DNA from: Dendronephthya gigantea
Taxonomy: Eukaryota
Length of the DNA: 64,000 nucleotides
Assembly: GCF_004324835.1 (NCBI RefSeq)
Contig: NW_021163190.1
Location: forward strand, 255,242-319,241
Direction of reading: 5' to 3'
Shown here piece after piece: positions 100 through 8,039 of this stretch (its first letter is position 1; each line of letters opens with the position of its first letter). The position numbers were made by a program, and so were the translations under genes. A model generated the notes under the pieces. The model searched no databases, had not been told where the DNA came from, and worked only from the letters and a program-made list of their open reading frames with translations.

Positions 100-540
100 T
101 CAATTGCCGCTGATTAACTGCTTGACAGGTTTGTATCCAATCCCATTTTCTAGAACATTAGTAGCAGCGCCGAGGATATCTCGTCTGCATTCTTTGTCCA
201 TTAAGCAGTCGGCATTCATTGGAAATTCTACGGTTCCACCGTCTTTCCGAAAAGTTTTCATCAATACACGACGTTTCTTGTGCGATATAGTCACTGCTAG
301 ACCATCGTTTGAGAATTTTGGCGTCACACTGACCTCACTGTTTTTCTCGTCTACTTCTTTGGCCGTAAGTGTACCATCTTTCAACGTCAAGATCTGGACT
401 TCTTGCGACGTTGATTCAACTAAACGACCATTCGAAGGGTCAATACCAACTGGCAACAGTTCACCGTAACAGCAGACGGTCCAAAGAAAAACTAGGCTGA
501 GTTTTAATACAAACATGTTCAGTAACGAAGCCAGCAACAA
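100..540 (-). CDS. small secreted protein, single exon (paralog of 4460-4870); probable true start at M9 (516)
   Basis: Uninterrupted ORF; N-terminal hydrophobic signal peptide MFVLKLSLVFLWTVCCYGE; shares motifs (TVCC-GE, LT, C-D-xC, NG-GYK) with the ORF at 4460-4870. Confidence 0.5.
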   Translation of the reverse strand: MLLASLLNMFVLKLSLVFLWTVCCYGELLPVGIDPSNGRLVESTSQEVQILTLKDGTLTAKEVDEKNSEVSVTPKFSNDGLAVTISHKKRRVLMKTFRKDGGTVEFPMNADCLMDKECRRDILGAATNVLENGIGYKPVKQLISGN

Positions 541-597
541 TTGGCGCCAATGTGTCGACTGTCGATTCTGCTGAGGTGGTTGCTAGTTAAACGTTAA

Positions 598-648
598 GAA
601 CACGTGATAGTTCTTAATTTATGCGCATGCTTATCACGTGTTTCCGCT
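598..648. promoter_or_regulatory. inverted pair of CACGTG E-boxes (acacgtgata ... tatcacgtgt) around a gcgcatgc core, 60-130 bp upstream of the minus-strand secreted-protein gene start
   Basis: Palindromic arms seen directly; position relative to ATG at 516/540. Confidence 0.2.
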
Positions 649-1491
649 GAGCTATAAACCGTAAACACAATATAGGTCGGCACTCTACCTTGCATGGGAA
701 TTGTTTATTTCGTATATATACCGAATGAAATACGTATTTCTCCAATAAATTCACTGTTATATAGCATTCAATCACGTTTCTCAACCCTCAGTCTCACAGC
801 GATAACACGCAGTATACCCCCGTTCACACTACACTCGATCTATTAGCACGGCAAAAATCGATAACCGTGCCTGGTAGCCTGAACACTAATAAAATTGGGT
901 TTAGCCGTGCCAATAAATTGAGTGTAGTGTAAACGGGGCTTTTAACATACCGAATATGAAAATCATTGCAAGATTATGGAACGGATTACGTTAGCCTTTG
1001 TGTATTGAACCTGATTAATACGGTATCAGTACCAATTTCATCTGTGCTAGTCGCTAAGCCTTTGAATTGGTAGTCTAAGAACGGATAAATTTTGTCACGG
1101 GTAACAATTTTAGCTGTATTGTGTCAATAATTTAAGTGTAATCTAAACCGACATTGCTTGCCGAATATTAATAGATTTCGGCGAATGCGGAAATATTCTT
1201 ATTTCCTGAGATTTAACGTCTGAGGTTTCGGAATGTGCTTACTAGTTCATTTTCAAAGATGCGGCAGTTGCTTCTGGTCTTTAGGGCTTATGTCATTTTT
1301 ATCTTTATAAATATTAAACGCTTGCCTGATCTGCAAAAAAATTCAGTTGGCCCAATCATAATGCTTGTCTGACAAGGAATGTATTGCATCATCTGAAAAG
1401 GTAAGGGCGGCCCCTGCGCATCTCAGTAAGCATTGCGCCGTTTCAATGTAGCTGAATGCATCCTATTTTTAGTCATTCTGCTCAGTCAAAT

Positions 1492-1902
1492 ATGAAGAAA
1501 TCATCTTTCCTAGCACTTGGATTGACTATCCTGGTGGTCCTTTGCTGTGCCACCGAGGTAACCTGTTTCATAGACAAAATTTTTGATGCAATAGTGGATG
1601 ATATTCTTCCTGATTTCGAACGCCATGTGATTCGACCTCTCATCGCTAAACCTCTGAAGAAAGTCGCCAAAGCCATCGGTCTTGTGAGGGTGAAGAAAAC
1701 GTACAGACAGTTCAAAGAAGAAGTTAAACACAGCAGAGTTGTTTTCTCGCCAAATTCATATCGCGTGGAGAAAATAAAACCGTGCGCTCATGGACATCAC
1801 GACATCGTTGAGGACAAGCGAGCGATTGAGATACAATTTCAAGATCAAGCCGTCTCATTTCGTCACAAATACTGCAAAAAATGCGGACAGATTTTCTTCT
1901 AA
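1492..1902 (+). CDS. small secreted protein (136 aa), single exon
   Basis: ORF 1456-1902; internal Met at 1492 begins the signal peptide MKKSSFLALGLTILVVLCCATEV; C-terminal Cys/His-rich tail. Confidence 0.45.
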   Translation: MKKSSFLALGLTILVVLCCATEVTCFIDKIFDAIVDDILPDFERHVIRPLIAKPLKKVAKAIGLVRVKKTYRQFKEEVKHSRVVFSPNSYRVEKIKPCAHGHHDIVEDKRAIEIQFQDQAVSFRHKYCKKCGQIFF

Positions 1903-4459: not shown

Positions 4460-4870
4460 TTATTTTCCTCCAATTAATGCGTGCTTTTTATAAGCAACAC
4501 CATTTGCAACCACATTGTTTAGTGTATTGAAAAAGTAATCAAGGCATTTATCGTTATCGATGCACGCTTTATCTGAACTCATTTCAAAACTGCCACCTTT
4601 ATATTTAACCGTCTCTGAGCGAAATTCCTGTTTATTACTTGAATAGGTTAACCCAACAACACTGCCGTTCAATGTTACTCCAAAATTCTTCGAAGAGGTC
4701 TTGTGATGGGATCGCTCCACTGTCAGATCACCTTCAGTGAATTTTACCTTGATAGGACCGTTGGATATTTCAATAATCTGTTTTGATTCCGTGTTCATTT
4801 CAGCAGGTTGAGTTTCACCATGACAGCAGACAGTGAATATCGCAATTAATGCGTATTTTAACACGTACAT
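4460..4870 (-). CDS. small secreted protein (136 aa), paralog of 100-540
   Basis: ORF 4460-5044; internal Met at 4870 begins the signal peptide MYVLKYALIAIFTVCCHGE; conserved C-terminal Cys pair. Confidence 0.5.
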   Translation of the reverse strand: MYVLKYALIAIFTVCCHGETQPAEMNTESKQIIEISNGPIKVKFTEGDLTVERSHHKTSSKNFGVTLNGSVVGLTYSSNKQEFRSETVKYKGGSFEMSSDKACIDNDKCLDYFFNTLNNVVANGVAYKKHALIGGK

Positions 4871-6293
4871 TTTGTAAACAAGGCCAGCTATGCCTAGGAA
4901 TCGGTGTTGAAGTTCAACTTTAGTGTTCGCTGTTGTCGCACAGCCTACCTGCCGAACTTCTGATGTATATCTAAATGCGAATACTGGTTTCCGCTGTTCT
5001 ATTATATGTCTAAGAATGCAAAATATGCATGTTAAGGTTGGCACTCTAGCCGAAAAGGAAATGCAAAATCATTTAGCAAACTACATGTTATTCGAAAGAT
5101 ATACGTGAAATATATATAATAATCCGAAAACATACATGATGTCGATAAATTGAAACGATCTCTTCACATTTTACAAACACTGTGAATTCGTACTTATCAA
5201 TTCGTAATGATATATGTTGCTAATCTAACAGTTGATCATTTCACATGCTGTGTTTCCATTAGTAGAGAATGCTCCAATGATTTATAACATTGATAAAGAA
5301 TATTGTTTCGCGCTTTGTTGATAAACGTTTTGCAATCGCGAATTTAATTTCAAAATATTTGCCGCATAGCACTTAGGAAAACAACTATATTTAACATTTC
5401 TTTAAGGTATAGACTATAAAAGAAATATGATCATATTTCATGTTAGTTGATCCATTATACAAAATTACCTAAGAAAGTAGGTGATTACATATTCCCCAAA
5501 AACCGACAGAAAAAACCCACAAAACAAAAACATACCTGCGATTGAAAATGCAACACAATAGCCAATAGGGGGTTAATATAACAACACCCATGCACTAAAT
5601 ATATTCAAAGCTGAAAATATGATCAAAATATGGTCAGGTTCGATGTCATAAGGCGATTATTAACAACATTATATTAATCGGACGATTTTAAACCTATACG
5701 CTTTTATTTATGGATTTCTAGTTTCAACCTATAGTTTTAACGTGGAGATTAATTTTTATATTACATATTCTTTTTATAACACTACACAGATACTTCAATA
5801 AAACTACAGGTTGCCACATGCAGACATATGGACATAAAATGACGAAAAAAAGTTATAGTTTTTAATGTTTTAACACTGATAAAATCTTGTGGAAATAAAT
5901 ATTATATTGGTAGGCTGGTATATAGCTACATTCTCAAGAGCTTGCCGAAGTGTTAAATACAATTTAAACATAAGAAATTGGTATTTCAATTATTCTTTTA
6001 GCGCTAGCATTGTATGCGGAAACTGTCGATTGCAATCTTCATTATTAAAATTGCTGTGTATAGCTGATAATACCGACAAAAAAACCAGCTGTGATATTGT
6101 TTAAGATATGCATGGTCACGGTGAAACAAAGTATTGATTGCTGCTAAATAGATCGCTATGGGGTGTACATAAATTACATGCAAATATATGACTAAGAGCT
6201 TCTTTCAAGGCCCCGTGACGCAGAGCTGATAAGATCGACGTATATTCGAGAATATACCATAAGCATTTCTTAAAGTTGAACGCGCATTAAAAC

Positions 6294-6602
6294 ATGGCTG
6301 TGTCTAGACGTGAGCATTGCTTGAAATTACTTATTTTACTATCACTTCTTCAGACAACAATTGCATCAGCAGAAGACTTGCAACTTATCGACGACACTGA
6401 AACAGAAAAACATCACGAAATGGAAGCTTCTTCAACTTGCGATGAATTCCCGATTGACTATGACCCCGTCACAAATACGTTCTCGAAAAATCGAAAGTAT
6501 ACCGGAGGTTGCAAGAATTTCGTAGCGACATACACGGAAGACTATGAGAAGTCGAGACAGGAGATTCATAAAAAATCCACGACGATTACAATTGGGATCT
6601 AA
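6294..6602 (+). CDS. small secreted protein (102 aa)
   Basis: ORF with signal peptide MAVSRREHCLKLLILLSLLQTTIASA; acidic mature region with 2 Cys. Confidence 0.35.
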   Translation: MAVSRREHCLKLLILLSLLQTTIASAEDLQLIDDTETEKHHEMEASSTCDEFPIDYDPVTNTFSKNRKYTGGCKNFVATYTEDYEKSRQEIHKKSTTITIGI

Positions 6603-8039
6603 CAATGCATGAAGATACAAAAAAGTCATTGCAGGAACGGAGTTCAAGTCAAATAGAGCATGACGTGTACAAGTTATACAGGACTTCAAAACATCAACTA
6701 ATTCAGAATGGAGATCTTACGTTGTAAAGAAATATTTTTTGAAATCATAAGTGACAATGGGAGGCTATGAACACATTAGCTACATACAGAAATTCTGAAC
6801 GAAATATATAAATATAGATCAATTAAGGTGACAACAATCATTGTGGTTATACGGAAGCAAGTTGATTGATAAGTTGCTTGACGTTAAATTCTCGTGGTTT
6901 TTCCACAGACAATAAAATAGTGAAGGTCTCGAATATACCAGATACTTAGTTTTCTTATTTTCGACGACCATCGGAGAAGTTATGATGAGTATATACCTCA
7001 TTTAAATATCAAAATAAACGATTTTTTAAAACCGCACAATATATAAGTTATCAGTATATATACTGATAACAGTCCTTATAATCATATAAGAGAAAGTGAT
7101 TTATAGATCTCTTTATAATAAACGACTTTCCATTTCTGGTAGTTGTTATTTCAATTACTCTTCACTGAACAGTGCGTTAGAACAGCAACGCAAGTTTTCT
7201 TCCTGAGTCAATCATTTGGGTTATTCTTCGACTGTCTGATTCAAGGACAAGGTGATTCCTGCGTCCCAACAGGTAAAACACGGAGGTTTCCACGGTACGA
7301 TATATGTACTTCGTCCCATCTTCGCATTCGTGTCAAATATTGGCCAACGTATCTCAGAAAGAGATGAATTTTCCGTAGATCCTATTTCGCCACTCGAAAA
7401 ACGGTAAAACCACAAATAAAAGCAGACACCGAAGGTCAAAATGGCAACCTTCATCACCACCGACATCTTGACAACAATTTAAAAAAAATATTTCGAGCAA
7501 GGAAGTTATAGAGTCTGAAAATGCGCAAATGTAGCACATTCCTATAAGTTTTAGCGTATTCTGGTTTTTTCCAGATTATTCGACATGACATTGAGAAGAA
7601 AGAAACTGACGTATATTTCAATAACTTTCTTGTTTTGAAGGCGCGGGAAAATTTCCTGTTTACGTTTTTGCATACAGTGGTAAAAACTCGTTATTTTCTG
7701 AAGGAAATATTTTGAATAGCATGAGATTACAATGACGACTGTCTAACTGAAAGATATGATATATATATATATAGATGCTAAATTTAATAAACTTTTTTAA
7801 GATTTTCATATAGCCTGCCATGAAATATTTCATATTTCATCAGCATTTGTGATTATAGTAAATATTTAGTGGTCCCACATTACGTCAAATTCAATGCATA
7901 AACGATGTCTCCTGTCTAAAGATGAAATATTTCTACGTCTATTTATAAATCTTTCAAAATAAGCAGGTGTCGTAATGTGGTGAAATAGAGCACAAATTAT
8001 TTCATGTAATTGATTTTATTTCGTTAAATATATTAAGCA

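Follow-up and report, generated by a model that had tools for sequence, protein, structure and literature searches.

A cluster of small, intron-less genes for predicted secreted proteins occupies the start of a 64-kb stretch of DNA from the soft coral Dendronephthya gigantea (Octocorallia), the whole of which is referred to here as the window. Between positions 100 and 6602 lie five open reading frames (ORFs) that begin with ATG, encode 102–138 amino acids (aa) and fall into four unrelated families, named A/B, C, D and E; the mature proteins would comprise ~80–120 residues behind a signal-peptide-like N-terminus. Each is a single-exon coding sequence, given here with its stop codon: gene A at 100–516 on the minus strand (138 aa; canonical for the A/B family), gene C at 1492–1902 on the plus strand (136 aa), gene E at 2248–2628 on the minus strand (126 aa, the most conserved member of the cluster), gene B at 4460–4870 on the minus strand (136 aa; paralogous to A but divergent) and gene D at 6294–6602 on the plus strand (102 aa). 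The cluster lies just downstream of a PARP4-like gene, 2.3 kb past the final coding exon, in a window that is AT-rich (GC 0.32–0.44) and gene-poor, as is typical for animal DNA. An earlier note on this DNA had placed B correctly at 4460–4870 and A at 100–540, which starts at an upstream TTG; the two signal-peptide ORFs that it described as interleaved with the pair, C and D, do exist, but it overlooked E. The fifth gene, the linkage group of four families beside PARP4 and the evidence of turnover described below are additions to that note. A further ORF between gene D and PARP4 (7221–7466, minus strand, 81 aa, with a hydrophobic N-terminus) was considered as a sixth gene and rejected; it is probably not a gene because it has no counterpart in any related locus.

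Are the five ORFs genuine genes? In composition-matched block-wise shuffles, ORFs of 100 aa or longer number 2.06 per 64 kb, or ~0.2 per 6.6 kb, against the five observed within 6.6 kb. Start codon, signal peptide and stop are all retained in the orthologs, on both strands, and further signs of genes are a conserved TATA-like core promoter, an AATAAA at gene A and an A-rich Kozak context that fits cnidarian genes. The excess over shuffles, the intact orthologs and ratios of nonsynonymous to synonymous change (dN/dS) of 0.11–0.69 together show that these are real protein-coding genes. Each of the five N-termini opens with a short run of polar or basic residues, which leads into a hydrophobic core (mean Kyte–Doolittle value 2.5–3.4 over 9 residues) and then small residues at −1 and −3. 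Core and small residues recur in all 21 of the 21 proteins examined from the four families, the character being kept and the sequence not. Signal peptides were called by a heuristic (Kyte–Doolittle core plus the −1/−3 rule), not by a trained predictor, and secretion of the five proteins is accordingly predicted. The exact sequences of A, B, C, D and E, with two alternative starts, are absent from a collection of 15 billion proteins in which the RefSeq protein of the neighbouring gene is present, and an exhaustive search with a hidden Markov model (HMM) found no protein more than 39% identical to B, so the cluster genes are probably unannotated as protein-coding in RefSeq. Exact look-ups by themselves are weak evidence, because a 538-aa kelch ORF of the window is likewise absent as an exact string. 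The cluster flags a class of small single-exon genes overlooked by standard annotation.

A and B align end to end by BLASTP (26% identity and 50% positives over 137 aa, E=7e-20) and match each other by tblastn within the window (E=2e-16), which bears out their earlier description as a divergent paralog pair. No third copy was found in the 64 kb, even with members from other species as queries. Both proteins have an MxVLK start, a hydrophobic core, the signal-peptide end TVCC[YH]G followed by E, and the motifs G-x-LT, GG-x-x-E and NG-x-x-YK, as well as a pair of cysteines that the earlier note had given as C-x-D-x-x-C and that is really C-x5-C (CLMDKEC and CIDNDKC); the signal-peptide end, the LT motif and NG-x-x-YK stand as it had listed them. 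In gene A, residues 1–18 (window 463–516) form the predicted signal peptide, and the mature protein has a beta-rich N-terminal part followed by a conserved C-terminal module, GG-x-x-E-x-P...C-x5-C-RRD-x-L...NG-x-G. Gene B retains the signal peptide and C-x5-C...NG-x-x-YK; the ECRRD motif is gone. Mature A/B proteins are near-neutral, their two conserved cysteines lie at the start of a predicted helix, and their N-terminal half is beta-rich, Ser/Thr-rich and variable.

The similarity of the pair extends upstream of the coding sequences. The element of gene A (640–687, minus strand) has a TATA-like box plus CAGCGGAAAC (658→640) ~140 nucleotides (nt) before the ATG, preceded by TAGAGTGCCGACCT (687→674). 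That of gene B (4986–5048, minus strand) has the TATA-like ATATAATAGAACAGCGGAAACC (5010→4986) ~138 nt before the ATG, preceded by TAGAGTGCCAACCT (5048→5035). The 14-mer TAGAGTGCC(G/A)ACCT has just two sites in the 64 kb, ~160–180 nt before the ATGs of A and B, where 0.32 matches at up to two mismatches would be expected by chance, and at both genes the TATA-like/CAGCGGAAAC block sits immediately downstream of it. The 14-mer and the TATA-like block are common to both upstream regions: the duplication took in the promoter. A TATA-like/CAGC(G/A)GGAA block also precedes A/B-family members in four related loci on other contigs (L002, L003, L005 and L006). Past the stop codon of gene A, an AATAAA polyadenylation signal (91–96, minus strand) begins after 4 nt. 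A scan of promoters and 3′ ends found no simple TATA or poly(A) pattern common to all four families.

What kind of proteins are the other three? C begins with a signal peptide, continues with a basic, K/P-rich and amphipathic N-terminal region (hydrophobic moment 0.71–0.99) in which a KP(V/L)L repeat is variable, and ends in a domain with a conserved C-x4-H...C-K-K-C-G, in which C...C-x2-C-G is invariant and a conserved histidine lies nearby. The isoelectric point (pI) of mature C is 9.1–10.2 and its net charge +6 to +23. E, too, starts with a signal peptide, and its mature form is basic (pI 9.6–10.1), with an invariant C-P-x(1-3)-H just past the predicted cleavage site and an invariant C-S-K-C, kept even in the most divergent copy and followed by G in four of five species. 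D is acidic when mature (pI 4.7–5.5), reads STCDEFP-x-x-YDP-x-T-x-x-F...YTGGC and carries two cysteines and two hairpin-like YD(P/T)-x-T-x-x-(Y/F) motifs. Conserved cysteines thus number two per mature protein in A/B and in D, and three in C and in E. By profile–profile comparison A and D match weakly, and only at the very start of the mature proteins, E-x-(L/V)-P-V..(Y)D(P/T)-x-T-G (hhalign probability 32%, E=4.8e-4); no other similarity between families was found this way (5.8% probability for E and C, 0.1% for A and E).

Where else do these genes occur? A profile of A plus B, searched exhaustively with HMMER against 1.84 billion representative proteins, gave 13 matches: nine small proteins (90–146 aa) and four large ones. 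All nine small relatives come from ENA, JGI or Logan metagenome assemblies, all are without names, and they have the C-terminal module (R/K)-x-GG-x-h-E-h-P-h-x3-C-L-h-D-K-E-C-R-R-D-h-L...NG-h-G. The large matches (P0006, P0010, P0011 and P0012) were rejected as compositional, being repetitive cadherin/Ig-like or DUF285 proteins, some with bacterial-type domains. A word-indexed homology search with B alone as query returned no match, and a scan of metagenome contigs added one locus. A concatenated E+C+D+PARP4 profile retrieved PARP4 matches only; the same search misses known family members and is uninformative on the absence of C, D or E. In at least five other octocoral-like genomes the four families are all present as intact, mutually linked ORFs; the orthologous ORFs lie in L001, L002, L003, L005, L006/L007, L008 and L013, and three of the contigs (L003, L006 and L007) have PARP4 alongside. 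Conservation in related species, the lack of which the earlier note had named as refuting its reading, is thereby found for every family, with dN/dS below one. In the PARP4 exon L003 shares 98% identity with Paramuricea clavata, and L006 shares 98% with a third species, so the hosts appear to be octocorals of different families. With relatives found on metagenome contigs of octocoral hosts only, the earlier description of a lineage-restricted cluster of single-exon, secreted-type genes is supported.

In gene order, L002 (a 584 kb contig) has E, A/B, D, C; L003 (153 kb) has the last PARP4 exon and then E, A/B, D, C; L006/L007 has the last PARP4 exon, E, A/B, C on the minus strand, D and a second C gene, C2. 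In L008, E is followed by two longer A/B-type genes, and in L013/L014 the order is E(+), C(−), A/B(+), identical to that of the window read on its minus strand, though E of L013 is only 46% identical. An E gene followed by an A/B gene, with C and D nearby, holds in every locus of sufficient length. Two further loci stem from one Tara Pacific sample: L001 has an A ortholog (54–60% identity) beside a D ortholog (55%), and L005 has a B ortholog (39%) and a fragment of a second B copy. As A and B orthologs share this one sample, the A/B duplication probably predates the split of D. gigantea from the Tara-sample species.

Gene by gene, the relationships are as follows. Gene A is 54–60% identical to the Tara ortholog P0001 (L001 763–1140; dN/dS 0.37) and 32–37% identical to the members in L002, L003, L006 and L013, and the ortholog of B is L005 1559–1957. 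C has orthologs at L006 4328–4732 (63%), L006 6916–7329, L002 15607–16026, L003 16814–17290 and L013 1124–1565, and D at L001 2568–2873, L002 14152–14481, L003 15480–15800 and L006 5567–5881. E is 62–68% identical to the copies in L002, L003, L006 and L008; among four species the identity is 62–77%, and to the most divergent locus, L013, it is 45–53%. The C-family gene of L013 (minus strand) is split over two frames at ~1248–1255, possibly through a frameshift, a short intron or faulty sequencing. The A/B family also includes longer sub-families, of 184–196 aa with extended N-termini and of 130–152 aa with C-terminal extensions. A second type of A/B locus consists of the tandem pairs of L008 (3634–4188 and 5358–5816) and L010 (253–843 and 1809–2234), each with a long form (184–196 aa, extended N-terminus) and a C-terminally extended form (141–152 aa), both of which retain the GG...C-x5-C...G-I-G module.

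How fast do the families diverge? Nei–Gojobori dN/dS was computed for 18 ortholog or paralog pairs, and dS was estimable in 16, which span 0.11–0.69: 0.11–0.36 for E, 0.11–0.27 for C, 0.22–0.51 for D, 0.27–0.38 for A-type genes and 0.69 for B against its Tara ortholog. dS is 0.72–0.94 against the Tara species and saturated (>1.3) against the other genomes. All families are under purifying selection. At similar dS, dN is 0.505 for B and 0.266 for A; B has gathered amino-acid changes about twice as fast as A since the duplication. Between the window and L003 the amino-acid identity is 69–72% for the PARP4 exon, 65% for E, 46% for C, 41% for D and 36% for A/B, so that three families, A/B, D and C, outpace the neighbouring PARP4 and E does not. 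The genes had been called rapidly evolving; this suits B, A and D (dN/dS 0.3–0.7) and does not suit E.

The cluster is also subject to gain and loss. L003 and a contig of P. clavata (L009; GCA_902702795.2) are ~90% identical on both flanks of the cluster, which are the PARP4 exon on one side and the start of an aminotransferase-V gene on the other. Between these flanks L003 has 12.9 kb (6430–19298) with E, A/B, D and C, and L009 has an unrelated 3.6 kb (8675–12300); no terminal direct or inverted repeats were found around the 12.9-kb segment. The 3.6-kb replacement segment carries a repeat-rich 298-aa ORF. L008 is 91% identical to L003 at the DNA level through gene E and thereafter has different A/B-type genes, and lineage-specific duplicates comprise A/B in the window, C/C2 in L006 and the tandem B copies in L005. 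The cluster keeps its linkage while changing its content, and it can be lost as a whole unit unless L009 is misassembled. Of the organisation first proposed, clustered genes with a paralog pair, this much holds; the arrangement is not a tandem array of one fast family and is instead a mixed cluster of four.

Comparison with known families and structures brought few leads. None of the 28 family members scanned reaches the gathering threshold of a Pfam-A family; sub-threshold zinc-ribbon matches (Zn_ribbon_10, zf-ChsH2, Baculo_LEF5_C) have E values of 0.012–0.11 and occur in one member each. Profile-to-sequence searches of the PDB were negative for all four families, with best E values of 0.29 (E), 0.9 (C) and 0.63 (A/B); the match of D at E 0.0027 was rejected as a designed repeat protein in which no matched stretch passes alone. 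Structure prediction, which had been suggested as a way to a known fold, gave AlphaFold2 models of A/B with a predicted local distance difference test (pLDDT) score of 40.5 from 2 sequences and 47.5 from 14 sequences, too poor for fold assignment. The models consist of beta-hairpins and then a C-terminal helix, the helix region being best (pLDDT 66–69). Foldseek with the model of pLDDT 47.5 found nothing significant in the PDB, the best match having an E value of 0.52 and a template modelling (TM) score of 0.24. Its top matches (E≥0.5, TM<0.3) are stems of beta-pore-forming toxins (among them CDTb, anthrax PA, lysenin and aerolysin), a lead at most.

What, then, is the cluster for? It would consist of co-regulated, lineage-restricted extracellular effectors from a single type of secretory cell, with defence or surface interaction as their most plausible role, a reading that we put forward tentatively and at somewhat under an even chance. 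It draws on the lineage restriction, the above-background divergence of three of the four families, duplication and turnover, the loss of the cassette, and the cationic amphipathic C. In such a setting the proteins would most likely act at the colony surface or in mucus, against or with microbes or other organisms. The N-terminal half of A/B, variable and rich in beta-hairpins, could be the diversifying, target-facing part, and the conserved helix, stapled by a C-x5-C disulfide, the structural or partner-binding part. C might serve as a strongly cationic, amphipathic, membrane-active arm and D as an acidic partner, and in E and the C-terminal domain of C the C/H...CxxCG knuckle could bind zinc or form an intermolecular disulfide. 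Arminin, periculin and hydramacin of Hydra are taxonomically restricted antimicrobial peptide genes (PMC10945409). Like the cluster they are lineage-specific, secreted, cationic (as is C), grouped in paralogs and fast-evolving, but they are single-family expansions without sequence relation to the genes described here, which form a conserved mix of four families.

Several points weigh against this effector reading. E is well conserved (dN/dS 0.11–0.36), unlike typical antimicrobial or toxin genes, and the proteins have 2–3 cysteines, in contrast to the cysteine-rich make-up of most cnidarian toxins and defensin-like peptides. Structure prediction was unsuccessful (pLDDT 40.5 and 47.5), so that the modular picture of A/B derives from sequence conservation and low-confidence secondary structure. 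The signal-peptide call is heuristic, and with no promoter motif common to all four families, co-regulation is proposed from linkage.

Could the four families be subunits of one extracellular octocoral system? They would then be passed on and lost together as a single cassette, in which E pairs with A/B and C with D, and E and C would be secreted zinc-knuckle proteins, a proposal we regard as rather doubtful. E and C share the CxxCG knuckle, and their count of three cysteines and one histidine is like that of a metal site in zinc ribbons or rubredoxin knuckles. The ligand pattern, C/H plus CxxC, is invariant in E over five species and nearly so in C, with profile matches that are sub-threshold. 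Zinc ribbons, in contrast, are typically intracellular, and the cysteines of E and C could instead form disulfides, including intermolecular ones. If the proposal were true, E and C would be rare secreted zinc-knuckle proteins within a previously unknown system.

Venom of nematocysts or glands, in one version with A/B as small, membrane-inserting beta-hairpin (pore-forming) toxins aided by the cationic C, is likewise rather improbable. Eunicella singularis has the venom proteins U-GRTX-Esi19 to Esi28 and octo-SCRiPs, small signal-peptide proteins without database homologs, whose orthologs are confined to Malacalcyonacea, including D. gigantea and P. clavata, and some of which are intron-less (PMC11896702). 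Small secreted venom proteins that are lineage-restricted, and often intron-less, are numerous in octocorals, and the cluster resembles those of Eunicella in its small signal-peptide orphans, intron-less genes and paralog expansion. The Ser/Thr-rich stretch of A/B moreover alternates hydrophobic and polar residues on either side of a turn, and the beta-pore-forming toxin stems are the sole Foldseek matches of the A/B model. Those matches, however, are not significant, neither a beta-pore-forming nor an aerolysin-like fold was found with the model, and ~120 residues are far below the size of any known beta-pore-forming fold. The cluster proteins, compared by description only, also differ from the Eunicella toxins in being cysteine-poor and poorly modelled, where the latter have 6–12 cysteines in 36–100 residues and confident AlphaFold models. 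A cysteine-rich toxin framework of the SCRiP, ShK, defensin-like or Esi20/21 kind (6–12 cysteines in 35–100 residues) was not seen in them, and E is too conserved for a typical toxin.

Matrix peptides had been among the classes first suggested, and in octocorals this would mean small basic and acidic, octocoral-specific proteins of the sclerite organic matrix, occluded in calcite like scleritin. Scleritin is a sclerite matrix protein of Corallium rubrum (GenBank JQ652458; 135-aa mature protein, pI 9.4; PMC3365975). Like the cluster proteins it is an octocoral-restricted, small secreted orphan, similar in size and signal peptide and basic as are C and E, and the cluster joins basic C and E with an acidic D. 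Scleritin has, by contrast, eight cysteines in the mature protein, lacks C-x5-C/NG and CxxCG motifs and is documented in sclerites. The 155-aa precursor shows no similarity to any cluster protein by BLASTP (best E 0.097), and tblastn against the window and related loci gave nothing below 0.38. Six family words (ECRRD, CSKCGAA, CKKCG, YTGGC, STCDE/TCDEFP and LTISVRS), all invariant, are absent, by word match, from the C. rubrum skeletome supplements, 12 files of 599,303 characters, one of them incomplete, in which the full scleritin sequence was found as a control. D, moreover, is just mildly acidic and not Asp-rich. A role in the sclerite matrix is disfavoured, and we judge it unlikely.

Secreted ligands or cofactors, morphogen- or hormone-like, that act on the coral's own cells and stay linked through shared enhancers would account for the strong conservation of E, the linkage retained across deep divergence and the purifying selection on all families. 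Dibasic processing sites conserved throughout a family are missing, though (the KKRR of A is not conserved), and the loss of the cassette in Paramuricea, together with turnover between close relatives, would be unusual for essential signalling genes; this explanation, too, seems unlikely. Cargo of a mobile element or endogenous virus is very improbable: the genes are intron-less and without homologs beyond the group, and two Paramuricea genomes differ in having or lacking the 12.9 kb as a whole, but no ORF of the cluster resembles a transposase, integrase, reverse transcriptase or capsid protein, the L003 indel lacks terminal direct or inverted repeats, the position beside PARP4 is shared by genomes whose dS is saturated, and all genes are under purifying selection. 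That the ORFs are products of chance or exons of a longer spliced gene, for which one might cite the exact proteins missing from the protein collection, is effectively refuted by the starts, signal peptides and stops conserved on both strands, dN/dS below one everywhere and the excess over shuffles.

A lineage-specific cluster of secreted-protein genes is of a familiar kind; the four families and their conserved mixed linkage are new. Octocoral biology is thinly covered at the molecular level, and here are four families without Pfam, PDB or named relatives whose linkage is preserved across genomes with saturated synonymous sites. They would be new candidates for octocoral defence, venom or surface chemistry. 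Orphan micro-synteny combined with presence or absence of the cassette offers a testable handle on the origin and co-regulation of cnidarian lineage-specific secretory products.

The PARP4-like gene that serves as landmark outside the cluster has its last coding exon, with the MVP-interaction domain, at 8939–9241 on the minus strand, 100% identical to residues 561–661 of XP_028415270.1. An ORF at 8936–9211(−) is 100% identical to the C-terminus of that protein, and four further exons of it also map at 100%; RefSeq names it 'serine/arginine repetitive matrix protein 1-like isoform X3', and it carries Pfam PARP4_MVP-ID. Upstream exons of the gene, on the same strand, encode a VIT domain (~29.3 kb) and the PARP regulatory domain (~39.9 kb). 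Its C-terminal part at 11243–17300(−) has repeated units of ~1–2 kb, the exons of which encode repeated KKEEDGVS-NDTFGGFSFGIQQVQT modules that are mutually 60–95% identical. Two tandem single-exon genes for a RING domain, a Sina/TRAF-type zinc finger, a coiled coil and a kelch propeller lie at 30617–35623(−) and appear to be nested in a same-strand PARP4 intron, since they fall between the VIT and PARP regulatory-domain exons. The copy at 34007–35623(−) is intact (538 aa), and the one at 30617–32230(−), 93–95% identical, has one in-frame stop (31460–31462) at a position that is Tyr in the intact copy.

Rfam families and tandem repeats were not found in positions 1–9500 of the window. ORFs beginning with MHNIQVDSFKRD occur at both 3766–4023 and 17777–18169, which indicates a dispersed repeat with one copy (3766–4023) between genes E and B. 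Satellite arrays at 24058–25186 and 48646–50177 consist of a 26-bp unit in more than 40 copies and a 77-bp unit in ~20 copies, at 96–97% identity. Short arrays of a 114-bp unit lie at 9640–10396, 23250–23891, 28003–28416, 28871–29398, 38901–39428, 40153–40680, 46460–47101, 55159–55914 and 60631–61158; their dispersal in both orientations, with ~95% identity between sites, suggests a young mobile element with an internal tandem repeat. A second dispersed family, with a 138-bp unit, is found at 25793–26642, 51810–52247, 59827–60402 and 61470–62757. An isolated tRNA-Ala with anticodon GGC (ARAGORN; Rfam tRNA, 36.1 bits) is encoded at 56833–56905(−), and near the far end of the window, at 63193–63951(+), a misato homolog has its first coding exon (Pfam Misat_Tub_SegII, E=2e-25).

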